Below, one piece after another: positions 34,697 to 61,924 of a stretch of 64,000 nucleotides of DNA. The stretch is from positions 1 through 64,000 of the forward strand of contig JAOPTX010000032.1 of assembly GCA_051532055.1 (NCBI GenBank). The letters run 5' to 3'. The stretch comes from Fibrobacterales bacterium (GTDB lineage Bacteria > Fibrobacterota > Fibrobacteria > Fibrobacterales > JAOPTW01). The notes under the pieces were generated by a model, which was not told where the DNA came from, did not search any database, and saw only the letters and a program-made list of their open reading frames with translations. Numbering within the stretch: the stretch's first letter is position 1; every line of letters starts with the position of its first letter. Both the position numbers and the translations under genes were made by a program.

Positions 34697-35224
34697 ATGA
34701 AAATTAGATTTGTACTTCTTCTCCTTATATTGATGGCCCCACTTACTGGCCAGTCAAAGGAGTATATTGTTAAGTCTATTTTTCTTGCAAAATTTTCGAA
34801 GTTCATAGAATGGCCTTCAGATAAAATGAAAAGCGATTCCTTTATCATTGGTATTTACGGTGACAACTCTTATACAGATATTATCGAAAAGGTGTATCAA
34901 TTTAAAAAAATTAAGAATAAAAATGTTGATATCCGATATATTAACGACCCGAGTCAAGTATCATCATGCCACATTCTTGTTCTCAATTCAGTTAAACCAG
35001 AAAGCCTTTCAAAAATTACCTCCATTGCAAATCGTCATAGCGTACTCACCATATTAAATGACACCAACAAATCGTATAACGGTATCATTATTCAGTTTTT
35101 TATTGCAGGCAATAATACTGTTGGGTTTTCAATGAACCGAGAAAGCATGAAAGAAAGCCCACTCGACATCAACTTTATGCTTGTAGAAATTGCAAACTCA
35201 TTAAACATGGAGGCACCAAAATGA
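34697..35224 (+). CDS. YfiR family (DUF4154) periplasmic protein
   Basis: EYIVKSIFLAKFSKFIEWP, F.IGI.GD, CHIL, V.F.MN. Confidence 0.85.
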   Translation: MKIRFVLLLLILMAPLTGQSKEYIVKSIFLAKFSKFIEWPSDKMKSDSFIIGIYGDNSYTDIIEKVYQFKKIKNKNVDIRYINDPSQVSSCHILVLNSVKPESLSKITSIANRHSVLTILNDTNKSYNGIIIQFFIAGNNTVGFSMNRESMKESPLDINFMLVEIANSLNMEAPK

Positions 35225-36846
35225 AAATTTTCGCAAGCCTCTCAATAAAAAGTAAGATCGTACTGATTATAACCATTGTGAGTTTTATTGTAATCTCTAT
35301 TACAACATCAATTATAAGCTATGTCCACATCAGTGATTACAAAGAGAATCTACTCAATCAATCTCAGATCAAAGCAAAGCTTGTTGGCGACTACTCTATC
35401 ACCGCCCTGAGCTTCAACTATCCTAAACGTGCCGAAGAGATACTTGAAAAATTACAGAATGACCCTTCTATTGTACAAGCCGACATCTACAATGTCGACC
35501 TCACCCTTTTTGCATCTTACCCAAGATCTGAAAACAGCCGGCCCCATGAAATCCCCTATACTGAAAGCCACGATGAATTTAAAGGTGACATCCTCAACAC
35601 GTATCAACCAATAGCATTCAAAAATGAAGTCTATGGGTACATTCATTTACAATATGATACGAGTCTGAGCTCTAAGCTTCGTGACCAAGTTACTATGATA
35701 CTGTTACTCTTAGTGGGAGTTATGCTTCTTTCACTCTTTATTGCACGAACCCTACAAAGTATTATTTCAAACCCAATTATCTCTCTTTCAAATACAGCCC
35801 ACCTCATCTCTAACAATCACGACTATAGTATACGTGTCAAAAAAGTGAATAGTGATGAAATAGGAGATCTCTACGACAATTTTAATGCCCTCTTGAGTGA
35901 AACAGAGAACAAAGAGATAGAGCGCAATGATGCTATTGAAGCTCTACAAGAGCACAAAGAGACTCTTGAAGTTAAAGTAAAAGAACGTACCGACACATTG
36001 ATGAATACTCAGAAAGAACTAATTGACAATGCACATAAAGCAGGCATGGCAGATATTGCAAGTGGCGCACTCCACAATGTTGGCAACATTCTCAACAGCA
36101 TTAAGACCTCTGCATCTCTCATAATGGAGTTCCATTCAAACTCTGGGTTCTCCCGTTTTAAACAGGCGAACACACTGCTGAGAGACAATATGGATACCTT
36201 AGAAGATTTTATCATACACAATCCGAAGGGCAAAAAGTTACTCATGTACTATCTTGAACTAGAAAAAATGCAAGAGTCATCAGACGAACAGATTACCAGC
36301 CATATATACCGCCTCATCGACAAGGTCAACTCAAGTGTTGATGTCATTCATGCACAACAAAGTTACGCCAGCGCGACATCACTCACTGAAATGTATAGTG
36401 TGAGTGAAATTATTGAAGATGGTCTCGCTATGGAAAGTAGCTCAATTGATAAACATGGGATTTCTGTTAATAAAAACTACTCCGTTGTTCCCAATGTTCC
36501 TATCCAACGCACAAAACTCATTCACATAATTATTAATCTCATAAACAACGCTAAAGAAGCAATGGAAGAAACCCCTCGGTCAGAAAGATTTTTATCAATT
36601 GAAGTCGTTGATCAAGAAAGCGAAATTGCCATTCATGTTTCCGATTCAGGTCATGGTATATCTATTGAAAATATAAACAATATTTTTTCCCACGGCTTTA
36701 CCACCAAAAAAGAGGGCCATGGCTTTGGCCTTCACTCCTGTGCAAATTACATGACCGAAATGGGAGGACGCATGAGCGTCACTTCTGGCAAAGTTCTTTC
36801 TGGCGCCACCTTCACCCTCACCTTTGTCAAAGAGATCAACACTTAA
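35221..36846 (+). CDS. Sensor histidine kinase with YfiN-like (CHASE8-type) periplasmic domain and HAMP
   Basis: SIKSKI..I, AL.F...AEEIL, DYSIRV..DEIG.LYDNFN, LHNVGN, GHGFGLH. Confidence 0.9.
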   Translation: MKIFASLSIKSKIVLIITIVSFIVISITTSIISYVHISDYKENLLNQSQIKAKLVGDYSITALSFNYPKRAEEILEKLQNDPSIVQADIYNVDLTLFASYPRSENSRPHEIPYTESHDEFKGDILNTYQPIAFKNEVYGYIHLQYDTSLSSKLRDQVTMILLLLVGVMLLSLFIARTLQSIISNPIISLSNTAHLISNNHDYSIRVKKVNSDEIGDLYDNFNALLSETENKEIERNDAIEALQEHKETLEVKVKERTDTLMNTQKELIDNAHKAGMADIASGALHNVGNILNSIKTSASLIMEFHSNSGFSRFKQANTLLRDNMDTLEDFIIHNPKGKKLLMYYLELEKMQESSDEQITSHIYRLIDKVNSSVDVIHAQQSYASATSLTEMYSVSEIIEDGLAMESSSIDKHGISVNKNYSVVPNVPIQRTKLIHIIINLINNAKEAMEETPRSERFLSIEVVDQESEIAIHVSDSGHGISIENINNIFSHGFTTKKEGHGFGLHSCANYMTEMGGRMSVTSGKVLSGATFTLTFVKEINT

Positions 36847-45998: not shown

Positions 45999-47636
45999 TT
46001 AAAAGATATTAACGGTCAAACCAACCTGAGCACCCGGCCACATATACAACCCATCTGCAACATTATAAAACCTACCGTACGAACCACCCCATGGACGAGC
46101 TAAATATATGTGATCAAAATTTGCCAACAGATTTGCCGAAGCACCAAACCAAAAACTCACCCAATTCGTCACATCCACATCAACAATTCCAGACACGCGA
46201 GCAAGAAACTCATCATGGAATTCATTGTCCCATGGTTCCGCATACCAACTAGTAGACTCACCAGCCCCATCAAACCCCATATGGCCATTTGGCTCATAAT
46301 TACAATACAACCAATACCCCTGAAGCAACCCCTTTATTGAATACCAGCCTCTATCACTGCTATACCCCAATCCAACACCACCACTATAGTTCCCCCCAGC
46401 CTTATTATAGGGGTCATAGCCAAAACTTACCATACCAAACCATGGCCCTCTCTCCATACTCACATCTATATACCAAGTACCTAACTCCGAAAATGAACTC
46501 CCGACATTCAAACGATTCTTAATAGAATCACTTTTTGTCTGCAATAATTCTGCACTCACGCTGGTGCTATCAATAATATTTTCAGTAGATACGCCTCCCC
46601 CGCGCAACCGAGTATCTTCAACGGCACTCTCAGTAAAATCTTCCTCACTCAAAATCACTCGCACCACACCCTTTAGATCTGCCGTCGCCTTTTTCCATCT
46701 CGTATCATTCTCAAGGACAACAGTATACACTTCATTAGAAAGCCCCAACTCCACTATTCTTCCTGGAGCCTTATACATCTCGGTAACTAGCGTACCATCT
46801 TTTGACTTTACAAAGATTCTCCCTGCAACATTTTTACCAAAGACAATACCCTTATCATTATTTCTCAGATCAGACATTACAACGTCTCCAGATCCAGATA
46901 GTTTCATATCATAACTCGGGTGTTGCGCCCCACCAGATGTATTTTGTGTTCTATTCAACGTTTCGTTAAAGGCAAACTGATAGGCCTCCCCTAAGGTAAT
47001 TCTCCCATCACGACTCACATCAGCCGCCCCTCGCATACCCGACACAAGATAGTGAGTAAAGAATGAACCACCAATGGCCTCAGATTCTTGAGATGCCTCT
47101 GTATTAGAACTTGAAGTAATAAATGCATAGCCCGAAAGGTCATTTGAGGCATCAACCAAAAAGGCCTGTTTGCGATACCCACCCTTCATTTGTGTTATCG
47201 CCCCCGATGCGCACGCATCAAGAATCGTCACTTTCAGTTGCGCCGGAAGCTTATCAATATCTTTTCTGAGTACTCGATAATCGTAATTATCATTTCCAAA
47301 AAAAAGACCATTCTCATTTGCATGACCTGAAAAATAAAGGACAATCTCCCGCCGATTCTTTGTGGGCAGGCCATCCAAGCGAGCAGACAGATCGGTGAGT
47401 GCACTATTGAATTTTTCGGCACTGGGCTCAAGGAGCATTGTTTGGTTCTCTTTGGGGACACCCCCAATTTCTGTGAGTACCCGGCCAACATTTTGTGCAT
47501 CAGTGTGAGCATATTTTAAGAGGTCTCGTTTTGCACCGCCGTAGTTTACGCCAACTATGATTGCGTATCGCTCAATCTCTTGTAACGCGAAGAGGGATGA
47601 ACAAAGTATTAATATAAGACTTACACCTATTTTCAT
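45999..47636 (-). CDS. Exported caspase-family (peptidase C14) protease with C-terminal beta-barrel-like region
   Basis: Signal peptide; AIIVGVN, LKYAHTDA, catalytic YFSGHA and ILDACASG, SQES..IGGSFFT; terminal GLTVNIF. Confidence 0.9.
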   Translation of the reverse strand: MKIGVSLILILCSSLFALQEIERYAIIVGVNYGGAKRDLLKYAHTDAQNVGRVLTEIGGVPKENQTMLLEPSAEKFNSALTDLSARLDGLPTKNRREIVLYFSGHANENGLFFGNDNYDYRVLRKDIDKLPAQLKVTILDACASGAITQMKGGYRKQAFLVDASNDLSGYAFITSSSNTEASQESEAIGGSFFTHYLVSGMRGAADVSRDGRITLGEAYQFAFNETLNRTQNTSGGAQHPSYDMKLSGSGDVVMSDLRNNDKGIVFGKNVAGRIFVKSKDGTLVTEMYKAPGRIVELGLSNEVYTVVLENDTRWKKATADLKGVVRVILSEEDFTESAVEDTRLRGGGVSTENIIDSTSVSAELLQTKSDSIKNRLNVGSSFSELGTWYIDVSMERGPWFGMVSFGYDPYNKAGGNYSGGVGLGYSSDRGWYSIKGLLQGYWLYCNYEPNGHMGFDGAGESTSWYAEPWDNEFHDEFLARVSGIVDVDVTNWVSFWFGASANLLANFDHIYLARPWGGSYGRFYNVADGLYMWPGAQVGLTVNIF

Positions 47637-47694
47637 ACTGTTCCCTTAGTAATAAAATCGTAATTAAGTTTTTTCTCTATTTTTTTGTGAGCGG

Positions 47695-48477
47695 TCATAA
47701 ATTACTTTTCACCTCACCCTTTACCAACACAATTTTCTCAACTTGAAATATCTCATCTTGAGTGATAGTGTTCAAAATGTTATTTTGATTTACATCCAAA
47801 TACGTGTCAACATCAAAGCTATCTGAACTCAAAACCATATAAAAGATCTCATGAGACGGCGCATCATCAAGTTGGTATGAAAAGGGAAGAAGTCGCTTGA
47901 GAGAACCCAGCTTCACCGAACTTCCATCTTCTTTTGCCAGATGATGAGTCACCACACCATTACCATCAACTGAAAATATCACGCCATGACACTTTTCCGT
48001 TACCACATACTCAAGCTGAAACTCGTCACCCGCACTCACAAGCATACTATCTCTCATAAGACTCGAACCCAACCGTGTCTTTTTGTACACATTAAGCTGA
48101 GCATCTAATCCTTTAATGCGCACAACCTCTGCTGTAGTACTCGTCATTCGACCCTCAAAAGGACTCATTGATTTATAAGTAACCGTCACCCCAAAGGCCA
48201 TAATAAGGGTTACCAATATCCCCTTAGCAAAAGTCACAAATGCAACACCCTTTCTTTTTTTATGGATACTCTTACGGTGAGCACGCTCTTGCCGAATCAC
48301 CCCCTCCATAGCCACATAGGGAAACCGCTCTCTCAGATCATGGTTATTCTGCTCCAACAATACCACACGACGCTGTAATTCTGCATCATTAGAAATTTTG
48401 CTCTTTAACTCCACAGACTCTGACTTCGAGAGATCTCCCAATAAATATTGTTCTAAAGTAAAATCATCATACTTCAT
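47695..48477 (-). CDS. Membrane-spanning anti-sigma factor with periplasmic DUF4384-like domain
   Basis: LEQYLLGDL N-terminal anti-sigma helix, single TM, RIKG, GD..QL.Y..SVDG.G.VT, LP.SY.LDDAP; overlaps the ECF stop. Confidence 0.8.
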   Translation of the reverse strand: MKYDDFTLEQYLLGDLSKSESVELKSKISNDAELQRRVVLLEQNNHDLRERFPYVAMEGVIRQERAHRKSIHKKRKGVAFVTFAKGILVTLIMAFGVTVTYKSMSPFEGRMTSTTAEVVRIKGLDAQLNVYKKTRLGSSLMRDSMLVSAGDEFQLEYVVTEKCHGVIFSVDGNGVVTHHLAKEDGSSVKLGSLKRLLPFSYQLDDAPSHEIFYMVLSSDSFDVDTYLDVNQNNILNTITQDEIFQVEKIVLVKGEVKSNL

Positions 48478-48949
48478 AAGTAAATGCCTCCCTCGAAAAC
48501 TCCTGCAATTTCTTTAACCGTTTCCTTACAGCAGGAATTGACATTTTAAAAAACATTGCAACGTCTTCTACCTTCCAGCCATCCCGATAATGCATCACCG
48601 CCATTGCTGCACTTTTTTCATCATTTCGCGATAACACTTTATTCAGAAATGACCTTTCGTTCACAATGGTCAAGGTACACTGCGCATCTGCTATGAGCTC
48701 AAGAGCGGGCTCTTCACACTTTATTTTTGAATCCCTAATCATATTCAATGCTCTATTAGTCGCCATGGTATACAGAAGACTCGAAGGTTGAGTAACATCA
48801 AGAACCTCCCATTTAGTGTGCACTGTCAAGAACGTATCATGCATACAATCCGCCGCCATCTCTTCATTTTTTAACATCGAATAACAACGCCGATATACCA
48901 TCGGACTATACTGTGTATAGAGCTTTTCGAATGTTGTTTTGTTTTTCAT
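48467..48949 (-). CDS. ECF RNA polymerase sigma factor
   Basis: FEKLY..Y...VYRRC..ML, AADCMHDTF, ATNRALN (region 2); region 4 HTH VA...S..AVRKRL. Confidence 0.92.
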   Translation of the reverse strand: MKNKTTFEKLYTQYSPMVYRRCYSMLKNEEMAADCMHDTFLTVHTKWEVLDVTQPSSLLYTMATNRALNMIRDSKIKCEEPALELIADAQCTLTIVNERSFLNKVLSRNDEKSAAMAVMHYRDGWKVEDVAMFFKMSIPAVRKRLKKLQEFSREAFTYEV

Positions 48950-49337: not shown

Positions 49338-50855
49338 ATGAAAAAAGTATTACCACTTATAGCAACCGCATCATATGCAGCATTTATGATGTCATGTCAA
49401 ATCATAACACCTACCCCTACAGAAGATCTTTTAAGTAGCTCTGCTATAGCGACTGGGGACAGCACTATCGTTTCATCAGAAACAACACTATCGTCAGCGA
49501 CTGCACTCTCGTCTTCTCCATTTGACACCATTATCATCTCTTTCTCATCTGCCGAACTTTCATCGTCAAGCGAAACTGTAACACCAGAATCAAGCAGCAA
49601 TGTAGTCGTTGTACCTGACTCAACGTTCCTCAGCTCTTCAAGTACAGAACTCTCATCTTCTGAAGTCATCGCACCAAGCTCAACCATAAGTTCATCGATT
49701 GCACTTTCTTCTGCCGAAAGTTCTTCAGCGATTGAGTCTTCATCATCTGTGGTTGTTGTAAGCTCATCTTCCCTAGAAAGCTCTTCTTCTATAGAAAGTT
49801 CATCTTCTGTCAATCCACTTCCTCCCTTTATCAATGCAAACCTTGTTAATGCAATAGACACTGCGACCCCATTTACTAATGGCGCCTCTACTAACTCACT
49901 TTACAGTAGTCAATACGCGGCATGGAAAGCATTCGACAAAGCATCACCTTCTACCCAATGGATATCAGGCCATGTGTTTCGCCCTGGAACAGGCCCTGCA
50001 AACCTCATGTACACCTTTGGTGAAGAACATAAAATTGTTGAATATCGCATCGCAAGCCGCTTTGATTCTCTCAAAGATCGCGCACCAAAAAACTGGGTTT
50101 TACAAGGGTCAAATAGCAACACGGCAACAGCTGCTGATGCAATCGATGACACACAATGGGCTACTATTGACACTCAAAACGACATCAACTCTGGCGACGA
50201 ATGGGGATCAACTGACAACTGGAAAGACACCATCGCATTTACCGTACAAACTCCAGGTATATACACCAGCTACCGCCTTTGTGTAACCGCCGTTAACGGA
50301 TCTTCTGTTGTAGATATTATAGACATGTTCCTCATGGAAGAAGCACACGCCAACATCACCATTCCAACAACTGAAACCGACACCCGCACATCATCAAACG
50401 GTACTTATGGAAGTAGCTATCCAGCATGGCATCTCTTTGACGGCGCATCTACATGGACCCAATGGATGTCAGCAAGTCTCTTTCGCCCAGGAAATGGCCC
50501 TGCCAACATAAGCTACAGCTTCGATGACGAACAAATGGTAACTCACTACACCCTTACCGGTAGATATGACAGCCTTAAAGATCGCCTCCCTAAAAACTGG
50601 ATAGTTCAAGGCACCAATAGTGCCACTGCCACTATCAATGACGCTCTTGATGCCACAACATGGACAACTGTTGACACCCGCACTGACATCACTACTGATG
50701 ACGAATGGAACTCTGAAACAAGCGTTGCCGAACTCACCCTTATGGTTACCAATCCAGGCTCATACACTACCTATAGAATTTGTATTACTGCAGTAAACGG
50801 GTCATCGATTGCTGATCTTATTGAAATCTCATTTGCAGGAATACCTGCCATCTAA
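49338..50855 (+). CDS. Lipoprotein with Ser-rich linker and two tandem discoidin (F5/8 type C)-like domains
   Basis: Lipobox MMSC; poly-Ser region; duplicated AW..FD..TQW..FRPG.GPAN..DR.PKNW..QG.N. Confidence 0.85.
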   Translation: MKKVLPLIATASYAAFMMSCQIITPTPTEDLLSSSAIATGDSTIVSSETTLSSATALSSSPFDTIIISFSSAELSSSSETVTPESSSNVVVVPDSTFLSSSSTELSSSEVIAPSSTISSSIALSSAESSSAIESSSSVVVVSSSSLESSSSIESSSSVNPLPPFINANLVNAIDTATPFTNGASTNSLYSSQYAAWKAFDKASPSTQWISGHVFRPGTGPANLMYTFGEEHKIVEYRIASRFDSLKDRAPKNWVLQGSNSNTATAADAIDDTQWATIDTQNDINSGDEWGSTDNWKDTIAFTVQTPGIYTSYRLCVTAVNGSSVVDIIDMFLMEEAHANITIPTTETDTRTSSNGTYGSSYPAWHLFDGASTWTQWMSASLFRPGNGPANISYSFDDEQMVTHYTLTGRYDSLKDRLPKNWIVQGTNSATATINDALDATTWTTVDTRTDITTDDEWNSETSVAELTLMVTNPGSYTTYRICITAVNGSSIADLIEISFAGIPAI

Positions 50856-50877: not shown

Positions 50878-50916
50878 AAAAAAGGAGCCTCTCAATTTAT
50901 TGAGAGGCTCCTTTTT
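50878..50916. terminator. Bidirectional intrinsic terminator
   Basis: AAAAAAGGAGCCTCTCAAT-TT-ATTGAGAGGCTCCTTTTT. Confidence 0.9.
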
Positions 50917-50917
50917 A

Positions 50918-51112
50918 TTACTCTGAACTTTGAACCAATGTCACTTGCTCTAATTCTTCAAAACTCATCTGTATCAATTCATCAATAGAAAAAGAATACC
51001 TCTGTGCATTGATAAAGCCATCTCTCTGCTGTGTATGCAGAGCGCTACACGCCGCAATGATCATCACCACCACAACACATATCATTACTCTATTCACACA
51101 ACACCTTTTCAT
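50918..51112 (-). CDS. 64-aa lipoprotein resembling the N-terminal motif of the upstream receptor
   Basis: SD AGGA, lipobox IAAC, SIDELIQMSFEELEQVTL. Confidence 0.7.
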   Translation of the reverse strand: MKRCCVNRVMICVVVVMIIAACSALHTQQRDGFINAQRYSFSIDELIQMSFEELEQVTLVQSSE

Positions 51113-51129
51113 TGCATTCCTACATTCAT

Positions 51130-53175
51130 TTAAAAGTTATATCCAATTTTACCCGAAAATTCACGACTAGATCCAGGTAGAGGGGTATCATACCCATCAT
51201 AAGCTTCTGCCATTTCATAATTTTCATTCAAAATGTTATACGCTCCAACGGTAAGACTTACCCTATCAAAGAATACTGACTCCCAATTCAACACTAGATC
51301 AACCATATATACACGGTCAAGTTCTTTGTATTGAAAATCTGGAATCCAATTACCTAGTGCATCATATTCATACCCATAATCAGCCCAGATAGCCGTACGT
51401 TCACCTACGAACCGTAGTGAGGGCGTAATATTGAGCCTATTAAATGCACGATAACTCATGCTGAGTGTTGCTTTATGTTCTGCAATCCCAAGCTTCCTAT
51501 CGGTATTTAATGGGTCTCTAAAATTCTCAGCTACCGAACCCCAGTTTCTCGCAAATGAATAATTTGATATCACACTTATATCTTTCCATTTATAACGAAC
51601 CGACAGTTCTGCACCATAGGAGCCCATACTTTTTGAATTAAGGTATAGATTTTGTTCAGCACCAGCATCCCATGTATAGATAATTGCATCACGTATTTGC
51701 ATCCAAAAAATATTTCCCTGAATCCATAAATCACCCATAGGATGGTACCCGAGTTCCGCTTCAGTTATCCAGGTAAATTCCGGCTTTATGTCTGGATTTG
51801 TCGCTACATTTAATATCGCTGGATCCCGTTGAGCCCCACTGAGCAATAATTTTAAATCCAGGTCATTTGTCATAGATCCAGTATAAGCAAGCCGAGGTAC
51901 TATAGAATTTCCATAATTCTCATTATTATTTCCTCGAACTCCTGCGGTAAATGTACCAACACCCGTACGAGCAATCAGCTGCGCGTACAACGCTCCAGTA
52001 TAGCTATCAGTATAATTATCCCCATTATAGGTAGAACTCAAGTAATCCCTTCCTATTATAAAATCATATGTAATCCCCGACAACAATTTAACATCATCAT
52101 TAATATCAACATCTACAGGTATATCCAGTGAGTATTTTTCACTACGGTCATCAATCTGCCAATCAGCATACACTGACCCATCAGAATACAACACCTCATT
52201 CGCATTCCAAGGCTTCTGTTGCTTGTATTGTATGGCCGGGTTCAACCTCAATGACGGAGATATATCCAATAAATAACTGACCTTCGCAGCATAACTGATA
52301 AACTCTGTATGATAATCAGGTACATCATATGTTGGATAAGGAAACTGGATATAATAATTATCATAGAATGCATTGATTGTAAATCCTCCGTATTCTGCCT
52401 TAACTAAAGCATTTGAAACTTTAGTCGACCCATTATCATCGTCGCTCAGATCTATATTTGCACCATATATATCATGTAGCGTTCTATCCGAATAATTCCC
52501 TTGCTCCATGCTTATAAAGGCAGAAACATTCCCCTTCTCACTCTTTGTACCAAGAAAAACATTACCGCCAGTGCGTCCTGTCATTTTTTCTGTTCTAGAA
52601 TAATATCCATTTGCATTCACATTGAGTTCTTTTGATGGATTTTTAGTTATTACCGACACAACAGCCATCTCTGCAGCCCCACCATATTGCACAGACCCAG
52701 GGCCCCGGATAATTTCAACACGCTCTATCATATCTGCACTAAAATGTTGTCCAAATGCAATTGACGCATACATTTCATCATTTACATCTATACCATCAAT
52801 AAGGAGAAGAACCTTTCCTTCACTCGCCCAATTACCCCGTATTGCAACCGAACGAACCCCTTGTAAATCCAATAAGAATTCAAAGCCAGGCACAAATTGC
52901 AATATCTCTTTTAAATCACGCAAGCCTCTTCTTTTAATCTCTTCACTGGTAACAACCGTTACAATTCCCGGTGATTCTCGCTGCGTTAGTGCGAACCCTC
53001 CTGACGCTACATTAATTGACAAATTCATAAGAACATCTAAGTCCATCTCTATGAGGTCATCCAAAGAAACGTCCTCCACCCTAATATTATCTACTTCTTG
53101 CCCCATAAGTGAAGTGGCCACAAGTAAGGTAGCTGCAATAGCGTGCACCAATTTATTCATTAATTTCATTTTCAT
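51130..53175 (-). CDS. TonB-dependent receptor-like outer-membrane protein (plug plus barrel)
   Basis: ESPGIVTVVT, VLLLIDG, IERVEIIRGPGSVQYG, L.PE, GAYNILN, terminal YNF; start one of 53187/53175/53169. Confidence 0.9.
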   Translation of the reverse strand: MKMKLMNKLVHAIAATLLVATSLMGQEVDNIRVEDVSLDDLIEMDLDVLMNLSINVASGGFALTQRESPGIVTVVTSEEIKRRGLRDLKEILQFVPGFEFLLDLQGVRSVAIRGNWASEGKVLLLIDGIDVNDEMYASIAFGQHFSADMIERVEIIRGPGSVQYGGAAEMAVVSVITKNPSKELNVNANGYYSRTEKMTGRTGGNVFLGTKSEKGNVSAFISMEQGNYSDRTLHDIYGANIDLSDDDNGSTKVSNALVKAEYGGFTINAFYDNYYIQFPYPTYDVPDYHTEFISYAAKVSYLLDISPSLRLNPAIQYKQQKPWNANEVLYSDGSVYADWQIDDRSEKYSLDIPVDVDINDDVKLLSGITYDFIIGRDYLSSTYNGDNYTDSYTGALYAQLIARTGVGTFTAGVRGNNNENYGNSIVPRLAYTGSMTNDLDLKLLLSGAQRDPAILNVATNPDIKPEFTWITEAELGYHPMGDLWIQGNIFWMQIRDAIIYTWDAGAEQNLYLNSKSMGSYGAELSVRYKWKDISVISNYSFARNWGSVAENFRDPLNTDRKLGIAEHKATLSMSYRAFNRLNITPSLRFVGERTAIWADYGYEYDALGNWIPDFQYKELDRVYMVDLVLNWESVFFDRVSLTVGAYNILNENYEMAEAYDGYDTPLPGSSREFSGKIGYNF

Positions 53176-55954
53176 GATCATCCTCATTTTCTTCTGCTCT
53201 GTTACGCTTTTCCAATTTCTTAAGCTCTATAATCTTTAACCACTTCTCTAACGTTTTAATAACCGAAACTGAATTAATTGGTTTTGGTATGTAATCATCC
53301 ATGCCTGCATCGAGACACTTCTCTTTATCGCCTTCCATTGCGTTCGCTGTCATTGCTATAATGGGCAACTCCGGGTTTAAAATATCTACACCTTTTTGTC
53401 GAATAACCCGTGTTGCCTTATATCCATCCATTATAGGCATCTGGACATCCATAAAAATCAAATCGTATTCTTTCTCTTTGAGAAGCTGTAATGCCTCTTC
53501 GCCATTACCTGCAATATCAGGAACAATACCCGCTTTTTTCAATACACCTATAGCCACTTTTTGATTTATTTTATTATCCTCAACCAACAAGAGACGCACG
53601 CTGGACCGAATATTTTTACTGATACTGTACTGAGTAATAATCTCTTTCTTCTTAGTGTTCCCTGGATCGACTTCGAGACCCAATGCCTCTTCTAAGCATT
53701 CATGAAGTTCACGCGCAAGAACCGGTTTAGTTAAATAGGCCGCAAAACCCATTTCTGAAAGTCGACTTACATCACCACGCTTCCCCATCGAACTCATCAT
53801 AATCAGAATAGTATCTGCAATTTCTGGGTCATTTTTAATTGCCTCACCAACCATTTCCCCATCCATTCCCGGCATCTGCATATCCAGAATTGCCACAGTA
53901 TATGGACTCCCTTTCTGCTGCGCCTCCTTTAACATAGCAATTCCAGCGGGGCCACTTTCAGAAACATCGCAGGTTACATTCCAGGCACCCAACTGTTTTT
54001 CAACTACCTTTCTATTCGTGTGATTATCATCTATGAATAGAATTTTTTCACCTTCAATATCTTTTCGATGAGCAGGAGTATAGTGTTTATCCGATTTATT
54101 CAACTCGATAGTAAACCAAAAGAGTGACCCTGTTGAACCATTATGACGACACACTTCTGAACCATGCTCTACAGGGCTCTCTACCCCTATCTCGCCATTC
54201 ATTAAAGCCACAAGCTGTTTCGAAATGGCGAGACCAAGACCAGTACCCCCAAATTCTCGGGTCGTTGAACTATCTGCCTGAGTAAATTTTTCAAAGAGCA
54301 TCTCTTGTTTTTCTTTAGGAATACCAATCCCTGTATCCCGGACCCCAATTCTTAACCGAATCGCACTTCCAATATCTTCCTCAAATTGGATACAAACAAT
54401 GACTTCACCCTGTTCTGTAAACTTAATAGCATTACCCGTAAGGTTTGTAACCACTTGTCTCAGGCGTCCTGGATCACCTTTTACATAGACGGGTACTTCA
54501 TTATCGATGCTACAAATAAATTCAACACCTTTTTCATCTGTCCTAAAGGCCATAGTATTTGCAAAACTTCCCAGCATTGAATGGAGATCAAAATCTATCT
54601 CTTCGAGGTCCAACTTGCCCGCTTCAATTTTTGAGAAATCAAGGATATCATTAATGATGGATAGGAGTGACTCGGCACTACTATGTACCGACTCTGCATA
54701 CCCTCTCTGCTCATTATCCAATGATGTATCGAGAAGTAATTCATTCATACCTAGAACTCCATTCATTGGAGTTCTAATCTCATGACTCATTGTTGCAAGA
54801 AAATCACTCTTGGCTCTACTTGCAGCCTCTGCCGCTTCAGTCTGTTCAACAAGAAATTTATTGAGGTCACGAATACGTTTTTCTTCAGTGAGATCCATAA
54901 AGACAAACACAACCCCCGTCACCACTCCCTGATCGTTGCGTATGGGGGCCCCGCTATCACTCATAAACTTTACGTCACCACGAGGCGTTAGAATCACTGT
55001 TTGATTTGAAAGTTTTGTTATAACACCTGCCCTCAATACTATTCCTACTGGGTCAGCGATCCGCTCCCTCGTCGTTTGGTTTTCTAGGGTCAATACCTCA
55101 TCAAAAAAGAGACCTTTTGATTCATCTATTTTTAAACCCACAAGTTCTTCTGCTGCAGGATTCATTCGCTCTATTATGCCTTTAATATTTGTGGTAATAA
55201 CCGATTCACCGAGGGAATCAAGAGTCGTACGCAAGTCACGTTCTTGCTCCTCAAGTTCAACTTTTGCATCATGTATAGTGTCCATGAGTGCATTAAAGTT
55301 GTCATAGAGCACCCCTATCTCATCCGTACTCTCTTTTTCAATATGTCGTGACTCATGCTCTCCTCTAGATAACTGTTCCATAAACTGAACAAGTTTTATA
55401 ATTGGAGCCGTTACTGATCGCTGTAATATATAGGCAAGAAGAAGACTCCCACACACAAGTCCCAATAATAAGAGCAACAAGGTCATGATATTTGATCTGT
55501 TTTCGGCATCCATTTTATTCGTTGAAGCAACAATATAAACCAACCCTATCCGTTGCTCTTGCTCAAAAATTGGATAGAACATGTGGAGTTCATCTTCTTC
55601 AAACCGATGTCCCGCCTGTATGTTTTTCTTCCCCTTGGGAAATTCGACATCGCCTCGGATATATTCAGAAAATACCGTAGAGTCCGCCGTATAAACGAGT
55701 ACTCGCTCAATCACATCAATTGATTCCATCGAATTGAGGTAGCTTTGAGCCACTTCACTATCATCAAACATCAAGGGAACGGTCACATATCGGCTGACCA
55801 CTTTTGCTTGTTCCATTATTGAGTTAACAAAATTGTTTCTTAAATTGGTGGCACTACGAATACTCAGTACCGTAAAACCAAGAGAAAGAGTCACAAAACT
55901 GATCCCCACTATGATCAGTAATAACTTTTTCCGTATAGAGATATTACGAATCAT
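53153..55954 (-). CDS. Hybrid kinase: CHASE8-like-HAMP-PAS-HisKA-HATPase-REC-REC
   Basis: [38 protein letters not shown], two D.QMP receiver motifs. Confidence 0.93.
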
Positions 55955-56506
55955 TTATCGAGCCCCCTGCATTTTTTTGAGATAACTCAAAAGGAAGGAA
56001 CTTGCCTTAAGCCCCGAAGCCGCCATAGCCCCGGTATTCATATTAAAACGAACTTTATTATTCTCCTTGTAAAGCAGTACGTGCGCCCCCTTGTCTAATA
56101 ACTCGGGGTTTTCAGTAACAATAAGTGCATGATACTGCTTGTTTTTCTCAAGAAGAAGGTCAAAATCACTCTCACTTTTGGGAGCAATATAAATGACATG
56201 TGCCGTAAAAATAGAATCAACCAAAGAAAGTTTTTGGACCGTTGTTACCCTTTTTTTGATGGTACGACCTTCCATAGCCTTTTCAATCCAAGAAGAAAGA
56301 GGGGAGTCTCCTAATATAAATACGCTAAATTTGTCAGTTTGATCACTCTCGCTCCAAGTAATTAAGGAAACAACCTTTATGAGATAAGCTGCTTTAAGCT
56401 TATTTTCACCTGAATTTTGGCCGAAACTTGTTGAAAATGCCAATAACACTACAATGAGTAGTATGACTCCTCGTGAGTGAGGTTTTTTCTTAAAGTATCC
56501 GTTCAA
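55955..56506 (-). CDS. YfiR family (DUF4154) periplasmic protein
   Basis: SD AGGA before TTG 56506; ENKLKAAYL....W, KVRFNMN..A..GLK.SS.LL. Confidence 0.85.
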   Translation of the reverse strand: MNGYFKKKPHSRGVILLIVVLLAFSTSFGQNSGENKLKAAYLIKVVSLITWSESDQTDKFSVFILGDSPLSSWIEKAMEGRTIKKRVTTVQKLSLVDSIFTAHVIYIAPKSESDFDLLLEKNKQYHALIVTENPELLDKGAHVLLYKENNKVRFNMNTGAMAASGLKASSFLLSYLKKMQGAR

Positions 56507-56878
56507 ACAGTATCCTAATAGAGCGGGTAGAATTCTTGGATATTTTACCAAACATTTCTCAATAAATGCCAATTTTAGCCCATATTCTCTAAAATACCCC
56601 ACATTGCTTACCTTTAACAAGCATATAATAGGCTTTAAACATTTTTCCCTATCAGAAAGGACCCCTGTAACACTCTAGCATCTTTCTAGTATTTCCTTGA
56701 ATTTCAACGATTTATGCTCACCATACAGCGGTAACAAATTGTGAACGACCAATGCAATGTAAGCTAGATTTAACTATGCCCCCCTTCCTAATTATGCTAT
56801 TTTTGAATTACTATCTAATAACCGTGGATCTCAGTCCTATTTCTCACCCCTTAAGAGAGTCCACATTAAGGAGAATCT

Positions 56879-59800
56879 ATGCAGGCTACTGTGTTTGTTA
56901 TTCTATCTCTATGTATCTCTGGCCTCTTTGCCCAGACAACACTTTATTTTGAAGACTTCGAAAACATATCTTCTGCTTCCAGCGATTGGAGTATTTATAG
57001 TGGTTCCGATTGGGAAATTGGCGCACCAACGTATTCTAGTGGCCCAGAAGCGCTTTGGGGAGATAATGTCGCTGGTCTCGACCTAGAGTCGTATCCATCA
57101 GCCTATAGCTATAATTATTTCACTTCGAGTACCATAACATTGCCCCTATCAAGTGATCTCCAATTAGAATTTCACTACTGGTCCGACATATCAAACTACA
57201 ATGAATTACAGGTTGAAATATATACGGGAACCACATGGTATCCTATTATTACAAACCTCCTTTCCAACACCAGCAACCAGTGGAGAAGAGCCTCATATGA
57301 CCTCGCATCCTATGCTGGTCAGAATATCAAACTTCGCTTTATTGCAGCCCTTTCTTATAGTAGTTCCTATTATTCTGGAGCATATATTGATAATATCATT
57401 CTTACCGATTTTGAGGGACATACGCTTTACAACGGATCAACAGTATCTGGTACCATGCAACCTTCAACTACTCTAATCAATGTCACAACCACTTCTATTA
57501 ATGCAACTTCACCACAAGCGCACTCTTTTAGTCACTGGACATCAAAACAAAATGCCATATTTGGAGATGCCACTCAGGCCGCAACTACAGTAACCCTTAC
57601 TACAAACGACACCATAGCCCCTGTTTTTGTACTCGCCCCCATGAAGGCCCTTTCTGAAACACCAGACACACTCAACCTTGATACTAATGCACTTGATTCT
57701 AACTGGGTAAAAGGAGTCTGGACTTCATTTACTGCACCCAAAGCAGGTATATACCGGTTTGATTATAACTATCTGACAAATACCACACTCTACTCAGTCG
57801 CAATGCACCCAAACTCACCACTCTCGGTGCCCCGTTTTTCATATAGTAGTAGAACTTCAGGATCTAACTCTTTCACCGCTGACTCTGCTGGTCACACCTT
57901 CTATTTTCACACTACTGCATATAGTGCTTCGTATAACTTATACTCAATTGAATTATCCGTTAAACATGAAGTAACCCTCACCACTGCGGCAACAGGTTCG
58001 GGTACTCCCACGTATGCATATATTGATCTATCTGCTGGTGATAGCGCCACTGTAACTGCAACACCACATTTAGGCTGGACATTTGTTCATTGGTCAGTCG
58101 ACACCGCTAAAAAAGCAACGATCAGAACTCCTGATGAATCCTCTACCATTGTTATTGTAGATTCATCGACAACAATAACAGCAACATTTACGAGACGGCC
58201 CGTTGCAGGGACCCTCATCAGCTCAGATGAAACCTATAACTACTCTGATGACGGAACGCCACAAGAGGGTGTGTTCTTTCAGTACTCACCTCCCTCGACT
58301 AACACCTACGTTATAACCCGCAAAGTGAACAGTTCGATTCCTGACTCACTGATTGTCTATAGTGATTCACTCTACACTACACCAATTTCAAAAACATATT
58401 GTAGCTGCACCAACCTATTTTCTTCAGAACTCGCACTCGAAAAAGACTCTATCTACTATATCCGAATATACCCCAATACAGCTTCGTTACCTGATTACGA
58501 CTTCACTATATCTGCCGATACCAGCGTTACCGTAGCTATCGCCCCAACTACTCATGGCGAAGCGTATGTTTTTACTTCAGGGGGCCACACTTCCACTGCT
58601 AGCATTTCTGATGATGACGCAGTATCTATTGATGCAACACCACAACTTTCATACTTATTCAGCGCCTGGACTTCAAGCAAACCGACCGCAACAGACTTTG
58701 ATGACGCCACCCTCGCGTCAACAACATTCTCAACTACCGAAGATGTCATCATCACACCTCAATTTTCCTATGCGCCCCCACACCTTTTTAATACTCTCGA
58801 CTCAACCTTTTCACTAGAGGATGACTCTTTTCTACAGCTATCACAACTCGGAATACTCATCAAACATAGTACTGCTGACTCTGGATTCTTTATTCTCAGT
58901 GTTGAAGACATGACAACAGCAGCACTATTCTCATTTTCACAAACGACCGATTCAAGCTTCTCTACAGAGTTACTTAAAACAAGTGGCTCGCTAAAAAACA
59001 GCCTTCCATTATATAGCCACGGCCCTCAAGACTCAGCCTTCTACAAAGTGTATAACAGTGGCTCCACCACTACTGATAGCATTACTATTATAACAGAAAA
59101 AGCTGTCGGCATCAAAACCCTCGTCACCGGCTCCCCAGCTCACGGGACCATTGAGTACCCCACAACCCTTCTGAGCCTAACAGGCGCCCTGAGCGATACT
59201 ATTATTACTGCACCCGATACAGAGATTATTCTTACTGCAAACCCCAACCCAGGATACATCTTTTCTCAATGGAGTACCCTTGAGACATCACCAAGTACTT
59301 TTGACTCCGTTGGTAAAACCCTTACCCTGGCTGCTGATTCCACTCTCTCCATTACGGCGCATTTCCAGCGTACGCCCCCACACCTCATAGATGATACCCT
59401 CCGTAGTTACGAATACACATCCGATGCATCGGACCAAAATTGGCAAGATGGGAGCTACTTTGTCTATCGCGCACCAGCAATAGGCTCCTATAACATCGTA
59501 TTCAATAATTATGGGTTATCCTCTTACAAGATTCTGCATTCATATACTGACAGTACTTTTTCCACACCATTAACAGCCTCAACCACTGCAACAGACTATC
59601 CCCTAACTAAAACAATTACCGCTACCAGCGTCGGTCAAACATTCTACTATAAGGTACTCACTACCTCAGTCAATGCAACACGACGATTTTCTGCTCAAGC
59701 CTTTAAACAATTAACTGTAGAGCTTATCGCTGATTCAACGGGCACCACGAAAGCACTCTATGGAAACTATACTCAAGGCGATACCGTCACCTTAAAAGCC

Positions 59801-61924
59801 ATTCCTAAAAAAGGACACAGCTTTAAGAAGTGGATTATTGCTACAGGGAATCCCATTATAGCCGATTCCACCGATCCAAATACAGATATATATTTACGCG
59901 ATCAGCATGTACTCCTCAGAGCAACCTTTAAACTTGATTCAATAAATACTGCCCACGAGTCCCCCATAGAGTATGATTATTACACCGACTCACAAAACAA
60001 TCTCTATAGTCAAGAAGGTGTTTGGTTTAAATACCATGTGACAATTCCAGGGTCACAACTCATTTCTATCATCAGTGAAAATAACACCGATAATCGCTTA
60101 GTGTTCTATGGCCTCGACTCCACCTTCTCAGAGGCAGATAGTATTGAAGTTGAAAATACTGGAAGCTTCTATCACGCCTTTACCGGAATCAAAGGTGAAA
60201 CCCACTACTTTAGACTGACAACAGATGTATCGAGTCGCTTTGATTCATTCAGCCTTAAAGCGCATAAATCTGCTACCATTACGACCGCAACCATTGGTGC
60301 AGGCTCTCTCCAATTTAAATCAACCAGTGATTCTGACGGCGCTTACAAACCCGAAAATGTATTTTTCATAACAACTCCCATTGGATTTGTTGCAGCCCCA
60401 GAGACAGGGTATCAATTTAGTCATTGGGAAGTTACTGGCCTCGGCTCAGTGGGTAATATTTATGCTTCCGAAACCACTATTATTCCAATTACCGATATGA
60501 CCGTTACCGCTCATTTTAGAGAAACAGACAAATACACAATCACCACTACACCGCTCCTCTACAACTACACTAATCATGCTGCTGGTGGAGACCCTCGCAA
60601 TGGAGTTTGGTTCACCTTTACCGCCCCCAACACTGCAGAATACACGATAACAATTGATGATCCATCAGATGATATGGAGTCAGATAAAATCTTTTATCAA
60701 TACTCCGATTCAACGTTTACTACGTATCTCAACAAAGAGACCGGCCCTAACCATGAGTATCACACTATTAATGCTATAGCTGGTGAAACCTATTACTTCA
60801 TGGCTACCGTTAAGAAAGCAGAAGAGTATGATAAAGATTTTATCATTTTTGTTAAAGGGCGCTACACTGCATTTACCATTTATTCTACAAGCTTTGAAGT
60901 AGAATACTCTCCTATAGGAGCAAGCAAGCCACTTAACGCCACCGCAACTGGTTCATGGGAACGCGGCCCCGCATCCCTGACCGCAGGACCAGACGACACT
61001 TATAATGGGGCTCAGCTCATTGGAACAAATATCAATGGCTTCTATGGGAACAATGCTCAAGACTCTCTGAGAATTGATTCTATCATATTACCAGATTTTG
61101 ATGATATCGAACTCTCTTTTGCAAGCTGGTGTGAAAATGAAAAAGATCGCGATATAGGGACATTATTGGTAAAGGGAAGCCATGAAAGTGAGTGGAAAAA
61201 GCTTCTCTCTGCAAATAGCCCTAACCCAAAATGGAATCGACTCTCTAAAGGCTTAGACGATTACGCAGGCGACACTATTTCCCTCCTTTTTATCTTTGAA
61301 TCTGACGATATTTTAACATTTGACGGCTGGTATATTGACGACATCACTATTACCCTGATGATGGATGAAACTATTGGCCCAGGAAACGTGAGCTCTATAG
61401 ACCCTGCAACAATACCCATTATCCCTGGCGGCCCTAATGACACAACACTTACCTCTGGTGAACCCGGAACCGAGAATCCAGGAGAGGGCGAAACCTCCAC
61501 TGGTCCTATAACCATTCCTCCTCGAGATTCAGGAGGATACCTCCCTGACTCAATTTATGGTGGGGAATGGATCACTAATCCTGGTACGGGCGATACTATT
61601 GCCTATATCGATACAACACGTGGCGATACATTGACTCTGCAAGGTGATTTAGTTTCGCCTAAAGACATTCAAGATTCAGTATTTGTTCTTGATAGCATTG
61701 CCCCTATCCTTCCTTCGTCCTCAAGTCGCTTTTCTTCACTCTCAATCATTCCCCAAGGCACAACTCAAATAGGTGTTCCGATACATGCACGACTCATTAC
61801 GATATATTCAATAGATGGGTCAAAGGTATTTCAATCTACACTCAACGGAACTCAAGAGAGTATTTTTGAAATCCCTCAAAGCATTTGGACCGGTTCAATA
61901 CTTTTCATGGAAATCGAAGAATAA
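56879..61924 (+). CDS. Large secreted multidomain surface protein (repeat modules, MAM/InhA-like ends, T9SS-like C-terminus)
   Basis: Signal peptide; six P..G..F..W modules alternating with GV[WF]F.[FY].AP...Y modules; two YFEDFE..W..G.P..GP..YID.I domains; IYSIDG C-terminus. Confidence 0.85.
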   Translation: MQATVFVILSLCISGLFAQTTLYFEDFENISSASSDWSIYSGSDWEIGAPTYSSGPEALWGDNVAGLDLESYPSAYSYNYFTSSTITLPLSSDLQLEFHYWSDISNYNELQVEIYTGTTWYPIITNLLSNTSNQWRRASYDLASYAGQNIKLRFIAALSYSSSYYSGAYIDNIILTDFEGHTLYNGSTVSGTMQPSTTLINVTTTSINATSPQAHSFSHWTSKQNAIFGDATQAATTVTLTTNDTIAPVFVLAPMKALSETPDTLNLDTNALDSNWVKGVWTSFTAPKAGIYRFDYNYLTNTTLYSVAMHPNSPLSVPRFSYSSRTSGSNSFTADSAGHTFYFHTTAYSASYNLYSIELSVKHEVTLTTAATGSGTPTYAYIDLSAGDSATVTATPHLGWTFVHWSVDTAKKATIRTPDESSTIVIVDSSTTITATFTRRPVAGTLISSDETYNYSDDGTPQEGVFFQYSPPSTNTYVITRKVNSSIPDSLIVYSDSLYTTPISKTYCSCTNLFSSELALEKDSIYYIRIYPNTASLPDYDFTISADTSVTVAIAPTTHGEAYVFTSGGHTSTASISDDDAVSIDATPQLSYLFSAWTSSKPTATDFDDATLASTTFSTTEDVIITPQFSYAPPHLFNTLDSTFSLEDDSFLQLSQLGILIKHSTADSGFFILSVEDMTTAALFSFSQTTDSSFSTELLKTSGSLKNSLPLYSHGPQDSAFYKVYNSGSTTTDSITIITEKAVGIKTLVTGSPAHGTIEYPTTLLSLTGALSDTIITAPDTEIILTANPNPGYIFSQWSTLETSPSTFDSVGKTLTLAADSTLSITAHFQRTPPHLIDDTLRSYEYTSDASDQNWQDGSYFVYRAPAIGSYNIVFNNYGLSSYKILHSYTDSTFSTPLTASTTATDYPLTKTITATSVGQTFYYKVLTTSVNATRRFSAQAFKQLTVELIADSTGTTKALYGNYTQGDTVTLKAIPKKGHSFKKWIIATGNPIIADSTDPNTDIYLRDQHVLLRATFKLDSINTAHESPIEYDYYTDSQNNLYSQEGVWFKYHVTIPGSQLISIISENNTDNRLVFYGLDSTFSEADSIEVENTGSFYHAFTGIKGETHYFRLTTDVSSRFDSFSLKAHKSATITTATIGAGSLQFKSTSDSDGAYKPENVFFITTPIGFVAAPETGYQFSHWEVTGLGSVGNIYASETTIIPITDMTVTAHFRETDKYTITTTPLLYNYTNHAAGGDPRNGVWFTFTAPNTAEYTITIDDPSDDMESDKIFYQYSDSTFTTYLNKETGPNHEYHTINAIAGETYYFMATVKKAEEYDKDFIIFVKGRYTAFTIYSTSFEVEYSPIGASKPLNATATGSWERGPASLTAGPDDTYNGAQLIGTNINGFYGNNAQDSLRIDSIILPDFDDIELSFASWCENEKDRDIGTLLVKGSHESEWKKLLSANSPNPKWNRLSKGLDDYAGDTISLLFIFESDDILTFDGWYIDDITITLMMDETIGPGNVSSIDPATIPIIPGGPNDTTLTSGEPGTENPGEGETSTGPITIPPRDSGGYLPDSIYGGEWITNPGTGDTIAYIDTTRGDTLTLQGDLVSPKDIQDSVFVLDSIAPILPSSSSRFSSLSIIPQGTTQIGVPIHARLITIYSIDGSKVFQSTLNGTQESIFEIPQSIWTGSILFMEIEE

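Follow-up and report, generated by a model that had tools for sequence, protein, structure and literature searches.

The 64-codon open reading frame (ORF) described here lies in contig JAOPTX010000032.1 of a Fibrobacterales bacterium (GenBank assembly GCA_051532055.1), of which positions 1 to 64,000 of the forward strand were analyzed; "the window" below means this whole stretch of 64,000 nucleotides. The ORF is the last of four tightly packed genes on the minus strand, which encode, in that order, a YfiR-like periplasmic protein (DUF4154), a hybrid sensor kinase with a CHASE8 domain, a TonB-dependent receptor and the small protein (Table 1). The small gene is real and under selection, and structure prediction makes the YfiR-like protein of the operon a credible partner for its product. 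We propose, with a probability of about one half, that the product is a lipid-anchored, TonB-independent titrator of YfiR that sets how active the CHASE8 kinase is at rest or at what threshold it responds, and would thus be a minimal functional YfiB.

The receptor model matches PirA, BtuB and Cir in Foldseek searches. The annotated start of the YfiR-like gene is uncertain, and the true start is probably 35–40 codons downstream; the mature domain contains no cysteine, and a profile built from it and 37 relatives matches the Pseudomonas aeruginosa YfiR structures with an E-value of 5e-14. A preliminary description of the locus, made from the sequence alone, had reported a 64-residue ORF with a Shine-Dalgarno sequence, starting 17 nt past the receptor stop codon, and this is borne out. 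The same description placed the ORF inside the operon terminator. The terminator-like hairpin begins directly past the stop codon of the ORF, so that the ORF lies upstream of the terminator and within the likely transcript. The hairpin is flanked on both sides by A- and T-tracts, and is probably bidirectional and shared with a convergent gene ending at 50855.

The small gene and its conservation

The small protein has a basic start, a short hydrophobic stretch, a cysteine (Cys22), a linker and an acidic, leucine-rich C-terminus. The closest relative was found in a sister species, a Fibrobacterales metagenome-assembled genome of the same genus, where the ORF has equal length, start, stop and place, and is 38% identical, compared with 94% for the receptor. 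Identity is distributed unevenly, with 8 of 21 positions in the signal region, 2 of 19 in the linker and 14 of 24 in residues 41–64. Within this last segment all 24 second codon positions are identical between the two species, versus 14 of 24 third positions. The ratio of nonsynonymous to synonymous substitution rates is 0.27 for the signal, 1.58 for the linker and 0.38 for the motif, values that rest on few sites. Judged by these substitutions, the small gene is conserved and selection acts on the motif, not on the linker. The sister genome has no such hairpin at the corresponding position.

A profile of the two Fibrobacterales proteins retrieved a third homologue of the same layout (P0124, 62 residues, E-value 2.5e-8). 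Residues I43, L46, F51, L54 and V60 are invariant across the three proteins, as is Cys22. The lipobox noted in the preliminary description is present here as I-A-A-C22 after the short hydrophobic stretch, and the cysteine stands; the residue at −1 is alanine in this protein and threonine in the two homologues, which falls outside the common lipobox consensus. From its sequence the protein is a likely lipoprotein, with Cys22 as the putative lipidation site. The monomer model is of low confidence, with a predicted local distance difference test (pLDDT) of 64 and a predicted template-modelling score of 0.30.

A single-sequence protein search returned the ORF itself as the sole match, and the ESM Atlas gave leads below 0.9 only. 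The search of 296 Fibrobacterota genomes detected no homologue beyond the sister, the other matches being weak (E-value 0.005 or worse). A search for unannotated equivalents downstream of homologous receptors had been suggested. A scan of 5050 short ORFs from 87 receptor loci gave four matches, none of them genuine (two receptor fragments and two chance hits); its threshold would miss even the sister ORF, so diverged members may exist. Among other candidates, P0126 (70 residues, found with a mixed motif alignment) has a canonical receptor start and was read as a truncated receptor, and P0123 and P0125 are repeat proteins and were dropped as chance matches.

In a marine metatranscriptome containing 0.40 of the words, contigs of depth 1–4 are scattered over both operons; they may include DNA and were not used as evidence of expression. 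One of these contigs runs from the receptor 3' end (window position 51127) into sequence matching the spacer and small-gene start of the sister species, a continuation that indicates a sister-like strain in the sample.

The motif shared with TonB-dependent receptors

The receptor motif has the form hydrophobic-S-L-E-E-L-hydrophobic-N-x-x-V-x-V-A-S and precedes the plug domain in 97 of 119 related receptors, as counted by regular expression. In the receptor model it forms two helices (residues 42–46 and 50–54) and a strand (57–58), with pLDDT of 57–76 over the block; no solved structure covering the motif was found in PDB searches. Profile alignment to Cir (2hdf) puts receptor V60 at the same distance ahead of the plug proline as is seen in Cir, 13 residues, and the Cir segment aligned to receptor residues 56–62 is what we take to be its TonB box.

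Residues 42–59 of the small protein align without gaps to receptor residues 41–58 with 6 of 18 identities, exactly as first described. Over the full length of the receptor no ungapped 18-mer does better, and only 1 of 300 shuffles was as good; the best 18-mer of the sister pair lies on the same diagonal (4 of 300 shuffles). Against a 23-column profile built from receptors only, shuffles as good numbered 1 of 5000 for this ORF, 52 for P0124 and 1404 for the sister. On a 15-column core, which leaves out the V-A-S end and was chosen after the full-profile result had been seen, the corresponding numbers were 0, 4 and 739 of 5000, and 0 of 5000 column shuffles for the three small-protein rows together. 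Comparison of the three small proteins with 39 receptors by hhalign aligned the same 17 columns (E-value 0.0004, probability 36%). The small protein is also the top scorer for the receptor motif among the 24 short lipobox-like ORFs of the genome. Where 86 of the 97 receptors have the TonB-box valine, the three small proteins have Q, Q and Y, and they also lack the A-S that follows it.

The preliminary description regarded the small protein as a free-standing copy of the motif of the adjacent receptor. Membership in the motif family holds; descent from this very receptor is not proven. In a ranking of 216 by likeness to the small proteins, the two cognate receptors come 8th and 9th and a paralogue on another contig of this genome (C2) comes 3rd; the best likeness is to receptors with two helix units. 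An origin by 5' duplication of the cognate receptor faces two difficulties: the small protein and the receptor have signal peptides of different types, and other receptors match better than the cognate one. From the sequence comparisons, the small protein is best described as a free-standing member of the motif family with an altered TonB-box end, not provably copied from this receptor. A subgroup of receptors carries three or four tandem helix-motif units before the TonB-box position (P0021, P0063, P0070, P0098, P0109, P0119; L018–L022, L043, L062, L064).

Predicted binding to YfiR and occurrence of the motif

The complex was predicted from 152 residues of the YfiR-like protein (38-row alignment) and residues 30–64 of the ORF (24-row alignment). 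The interface score (ipSAE) was 0.74–0.78 with a median of 0.75, versus 0.02 for the best of three controls, and the prediction, which had been suggested as a check on the locus, passed. The ipSAE mark is reached by 116 of 157 solved pairs and 2 of 215 mismatched pairs, counts that are rough here since author-made alignments were used. The runs share at least 90% of their contacts, and the partner has a pLDDT of 66–67.

In the model, the two helices of the peptide (I43, L46, I47, F51 and L54) pack on YfiR helix 1, V57–L59 contact YfiR residues 119–121, and residues 57–60 meet the YfiR edge strand. The interface comprises peptide residues 41, 43, 46–47, 49, 51, 54–55 and 57–60, five of which (of 12) are invariant in the three homologues, and YfiR residues 2–13, 45–46, 116, 119–122 and 144. 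The helix-1 and strand positions of YfiR at this interface are fairly conserved among receptor-linked YfiRs. The two partners are complementary in charge, with a net charge of 0 to +7 in all 38 YfiR rows and −1 to −8 in all 24 motif rows.

Mapped onto P. aeruginosa YfiR, the predicted site corresponds to about 43–54, 84–85, 158–161 and L183. In the passages of the published accounts cited here and below, the homodimer interface involves D80, R98 and T76, and YfiB contacts the far end of the edge strand (PMC4655355). The predicted site avoids the former and lies mostly off the YfiB site, sharing the edge strand (PMC4887326, PMC4655355), which makes recall of a solved complex less likely. As for YfiB, the outer-membrane lipoprotein that had been invoked as the precedent, its crystallographic site on YfiR mostly differs from the predicted one, and a PDB search found no sequence match of the peptide to YfiB. 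Malone et al. proposed hydrophobic YfiR positions 160, 162 and 183 for YfiN binding (PMC3375315), and the predicted site includes two of these three, 160 and 183.

The distribution of the motif was examined in the 296 Fibrobacterota genomes, of which 292 contain a plug domain, 40 YfiR and 45 the motif (E-value of 0.02 or lower, an insensitive search that found 2 of the 10 copies in this genome). The motif is found in 33 of the 40 genomes with YfiR versus 12 of the 256 without it, and seven genomes have YfiR only; kin are included in these counts, which are therefore non-independent and inflate the co-occurrence. Of the loci retrieved for 87 related receptors, many of them short contigs, 42 contain a YfiR gene. 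In the present genome, 10 of 15 plug-domain receptors carry the motif and four of five YfiR genes adjoin one. The motif is thus typical of receptors beside YfiR, as had been supposed, and is not limited to them, since only 4 of the 10 motif receptors here adjoin YfiR. Inspection of 11 of the 12 YfiR-less motif genomes revealed two chance hits, two genomes without any adaptor nearby and seven with a different periplasmic protein. The pattern suggests that the motif marks receptors tied to periplasmic adaptors, most often YfiR.

The protein in those seven genomes belongs to an unannotated periplasmic family of about 335 residues without a Pfam match, encoded near motif receptors and mostly with sensor genes. 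It shows weak matches to ABC-type binding proteins (e.g. 3LFT, E-value 0.27), and a relationship to YfiR is unsupported by hhalign; the family may be a second type of adaptor for the receptor motif. A 240-residue unannotated periplasmic protein often accompanies it. YfiR domains also occur in longer proteins: one is N-terminal in a 901-residue protein directly after a motif receptor (G000:C13:32147–34852), and others lie within long reading frames in G001, G249, G255, G257 and G263. A receptor clade with a degenerate motif (L034, L046, L061, P0072) is found at three loci beside a YfiR whose helix 1 departs from the consensus, and co-variation of the two sequences is possible.

Table 1. Positions and supporting evidence of the features discussed (window coordinates, except for the last row).
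Feature	Position	Strand	Basis
YfiR-like periplasmic protein	55955..56620	-	PF13689 E 1.4e-26; NF053591 E 3e-23 (below cut-off)
Hybrid sensor kinase, CHASE8-HAMP-PAS-HisKA-HATPase-two receivers	53153..55954	-	Pfam; NF053592 E 1e-38 (below cut-off)
TonB-dependent receptor, plug and beta-barrel, 685 residues	51130..53187	-	PF07715 E 1.7e-19; model pLDDT 87.6
Receptor pre-plug motif, residues 41-58, two short helices into strand	53014..53067	-	Regular expression, 97/119 homologues; receptor model
Receptor residues 56-62, TonB-box position	53002..53022	-	Profile alignment to Cir 2hdf
Shine-Dalgarno-like AGGA, 5 nt upstream of ATG	51118..51121	-	Sister: AGGT, identical spacing
64-residue predicted lipoprotein: signal 1-21, Cys22, variable linker 23-40, conserved motif 41-64	50918..51112	-	
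Cys22, likely lipidation site	51047..51049	-	Invariant in 3/3 homologues
Lipoprotein residues 41-60, free-standing receptor-type motif, predicted YfiR-binding segment	50933..50992	-	
Intrinsic-terminator-like hairpin	50879..50916	.	17 bp, -30.6 kcal/mol, z -10, 0/200 shuffles
Members of the 335-residue family in other genomes	L174:1646-2641, L175:2111-3154, L176:3030-4016, L178:94-1098, L179:7038-8036, L182:7193-8182, L183:6950-8140, L069:135-1154		

Other genes of the window include a second YfiR and CHASE8 sensor pair at 34697–36846 (+), which has no adjoining receptor; orphan motif receptors, or the lipopeptide, could act on it in trans. A cluster at 45999–48949 (−) encodes an extracytoplasmic function sigma factor, a likely anti-sigma protein and a caspase-domain protein; the sigma and anti-sigma pair is also present in the sister genome. 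The operon is flanked on the opposite strand by a serine-rich lipoprotein whose C-terminal domain is duplicated and which matches no Pfam family (49338–50855, +) and by a 1681-residue secreted protein with InlB B-type repeats (56879–61924, +). In the sister genome, a leucine-rich-repeat-like protein is encoded downstream of the small gene on the same strand (L001:8459–9268).

Proposed role and comparison with known systems

In the proposed mechanism, the C-terminal motif of the lipopeptide would bind the YfiR of its operon, likely at the site meant for the N-terminal motif of the receptor. The receptor motif, exposed on binding of external ligand much as a TonB box undocks, would bind that same site and form the signal output of the cassette. 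YfiR would repress the CHASE8 sensor and its capture would relieve the repression, as in the P. aeruginosa YfiBNR system; by presenting the YfiR epitope permanently from the outer membrane, the lipopeptide would set the baseline activity of the kinase. In the receptor, the residues that match the strand of the peptide would be the first of the TonB-box position; YfiR and TonB would then be competitors for its tail, and the lipopeptide, which lacks the valine, would be specific for YfiR and independent of ligand. Of these steps, only capture by the lipopeptide is predicted by a model; that the receptor takes part as described, that this YfiR is a repressor, and in which direction the kinase responds are points borrowed from YfiBNR. 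In a broader and somewhat less probable form of the idea, which we put forward tentatively, the N-terminal motif of these receptors in general is a docking peptide for YfiR (elsewhere perhaps for another adaptor), the receptors are surface sensors wired to histidine kinases through a switch that overlaps the TonB box, and the 64-residue lipoprotein is a natural TonB-blind copy, giving set-point control as an independently invented minimal YfiB.

Several points weigh against the titrator proposal. In the complex prediction 21 of the 24 partner rows are receptor motifs and three are small proteins, and the pass may therefore reflect the family motif more than this particular ORF; YfiR was modelled as a monomer, the controls were three unrelated proteins, and the prediction covers YfiR and the lipopeptide only. 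Repression of the kinase is borrowed by analogy, as this YfiR is without the Pseudomonas cysteines and the proteins fall below the NCBIfam cut-offs. Of the 10 receptors here that carry the motif, six lack an adjacent YfiR, one of them at a contig end, and among the YfiR-less motif genomes inspected seven have another periplasmic protein near the receptor and two have neither. The family of small proteins has three members among 1.84 billion representatives, and no such ORF was detected in the 86 other receptor loci at a threshold that would miss even the sister ORF; the cassette thus normally works without it. Finally, the sister motif by itself gives no significant score with the receptor profile, and at column 14, hydrophobic in the receptors, all three small proteins have E or D.

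The small protein might also be a genuine lipoprotein of unrelated function with a chance acidic amphipathic likeness to the receptor motif, or a drifting relic of a duplicated receptor 5' end. Short acidic, leucine-rich helix starts are common, and the insignificance of the sister copy, the hhalign probability and the tiny family size fit such an origin. It is nevertheless quite improbable: the alignment diagonal is identical in both species, the independently found third homologue matches the receptor-only core, no other short lipobox-like ORF of the genome scores as high, selection acts on the motif but not the linker, and the complex prediction passes. The preliminary description had left open whether the motif binds YfiR or TonB. 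YfiR is favored by the complex prediction and by its co-occurrence with the motif; a decoy soaking up the TonB C-terminal domain would be compatible with a receptor motif that runs into the TonB-box position and with a genome containing four TonB_C matches over cut-off. This decoy role is highly improbable, since none of the three small proteins has the TonB-box valine or keeps the A-S; moreover, conservation lies mostly in the upstream helices, and the motif follows YfiR even though plug domains are near-universal in Fibrobacterota.

The lipopeptide might instead bind the receptor, at its periplasmic face or motif helices, and gate or stabilize it, as phage T5 Llp jams FhuA. The position of the gene directly downstream of the receptor in the same operon, the tandem helix units of some receptors, which suggest self-packing, and the solved precedent of a small periplasmic lipoprotein on a TonB-dependent receptor (PMC9586334) are in keeping with this, but a PDB search found no sequence match to Llp, and the passing YfiR prediction and the association of motif and YfiR would be left unexplained; we regard it as decidedly improbable. 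The same binding to YfiR could also serve another role, with the lipopeptide acting as a scaffold or parking site that retains and stabilizes YfiR at the outer membrane until it is passed on to the receptor, or with YfiR acting as a positive bridge and the lipopeptide damping the kinase. The predicted site lies beside, not on, the proven YfiB pocket, so that YfiR might bind peptide and CHASE8 together, and the YfiN site on YfiR rests on mutants and conservation. This role is unlikely given that the site includes 160 and 183, that I160 is hydrogen-bonded to Q187, a YfiN-suppressor position (PMC4655355), and that YfiR is a repressor in P. aeruginosa, with homologous systems reported to be similar (PMC3375315).

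According to Malone et al., distant YfiR-YfiN pairs are almost all without YfiB (PMC3375315), which leaves their input unexplained. The trio of receptor, YfiR and kinase is catalogued across phyla, and no test of it was found. A literature search, with subscription journals and bioRxiv supplements outside its coverage, retrieved no paper linking such receptors to YfiR, to a partner of the motif or to a mini-lipoprotein, and "TonB" is absent from the main text of PMC3375315 and PMC4655355 and from those supplements of PMC3375315 that were examined. In the small gene the predicted missing link stands by itself as a peptide of some 20 residues, with named residues on both sides, which reduces the question to a cheap peptide-binding experiment. 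If the proposal is true, a TonB-dependent receptor would connect the cell surface to a two-component kinase, and this route would come with a natural, genetically encoded tuner. With three sequences the lipoprotein is rare, and its value lies mostly in the light it sheds on the receptor family.

The same three adjacent gene types are described by the NCBIfam models NF053590 (TOL_0244 receptor), NF053591 (YfiR-like) and NF053592 (associated kinase), and the NF053590 match begins at model position 2, which is receptor residue 45, inside the motif. The present proteins differ in falling below the curated cut-offs (51/645, 82/125 and 133/194 bits, respectively), and the set of models does not include a small lipoprotein; the literature search, within the same coverage, found no experimental work on the trio. 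Cell-surface signalling of the FecA-FecR type uses a folded signalling domain of the receptor and an anti-sigma factor. In the present system, too, the receptor would pass its signal to another protein through an N-terminal periplasmic segment, but this segment is a motif of some 20 residues, and the other components are a soluble YfiR and a kinase.

Phage T5 Llp is comparable in being a small lipoprotein of the periplasm that acts on the pathway of a TonB-dependent receptor. It differs in being encoded by a phage and in binding the receptor plug (PMC9586334); the present protein comes from a chromosomal operon, carries a repeat of a receptor segment and has YfiR as its predicted partner. An intramolecular disulfide is a mark of the Llp and Cor superinfection-exclusion lipoproteins, and none of the three homologues has a cysteine after Cys22.

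The closest parallel is YfiBNR of P. aeruginosa (PMC3375315, PMC4887326, PMC4655355), in which a YfiR (PF13689) and an inner-membrane CHASE8-HAMP sensor are likewise encoded in one operon with a likely outer-membrane lipoprotein, here predicted to capture YfiR through an acidic and hydrophobic segment and the YfiR edge strand. The output differs, being a hybrid histidine kinase with HisKA, HATPase and two receivers instead of GGDEF; YfiR is cysteine-free, in contrast to the Pseudomonas protein with its disulfide cysteines; and the operon includes a TonB-dependent receptor with the same motif. The lipoprotein itself has 43 mature residues, no OmpA/Pal peptidoglycan-binding domain (no Pfam match at an E-value of 1 or lower) and no likeness to YfiB, and its predicted site on YfiR is mostly another patch. 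As modelled, the small lipoprotein would work like YfiB but is not YfiB.
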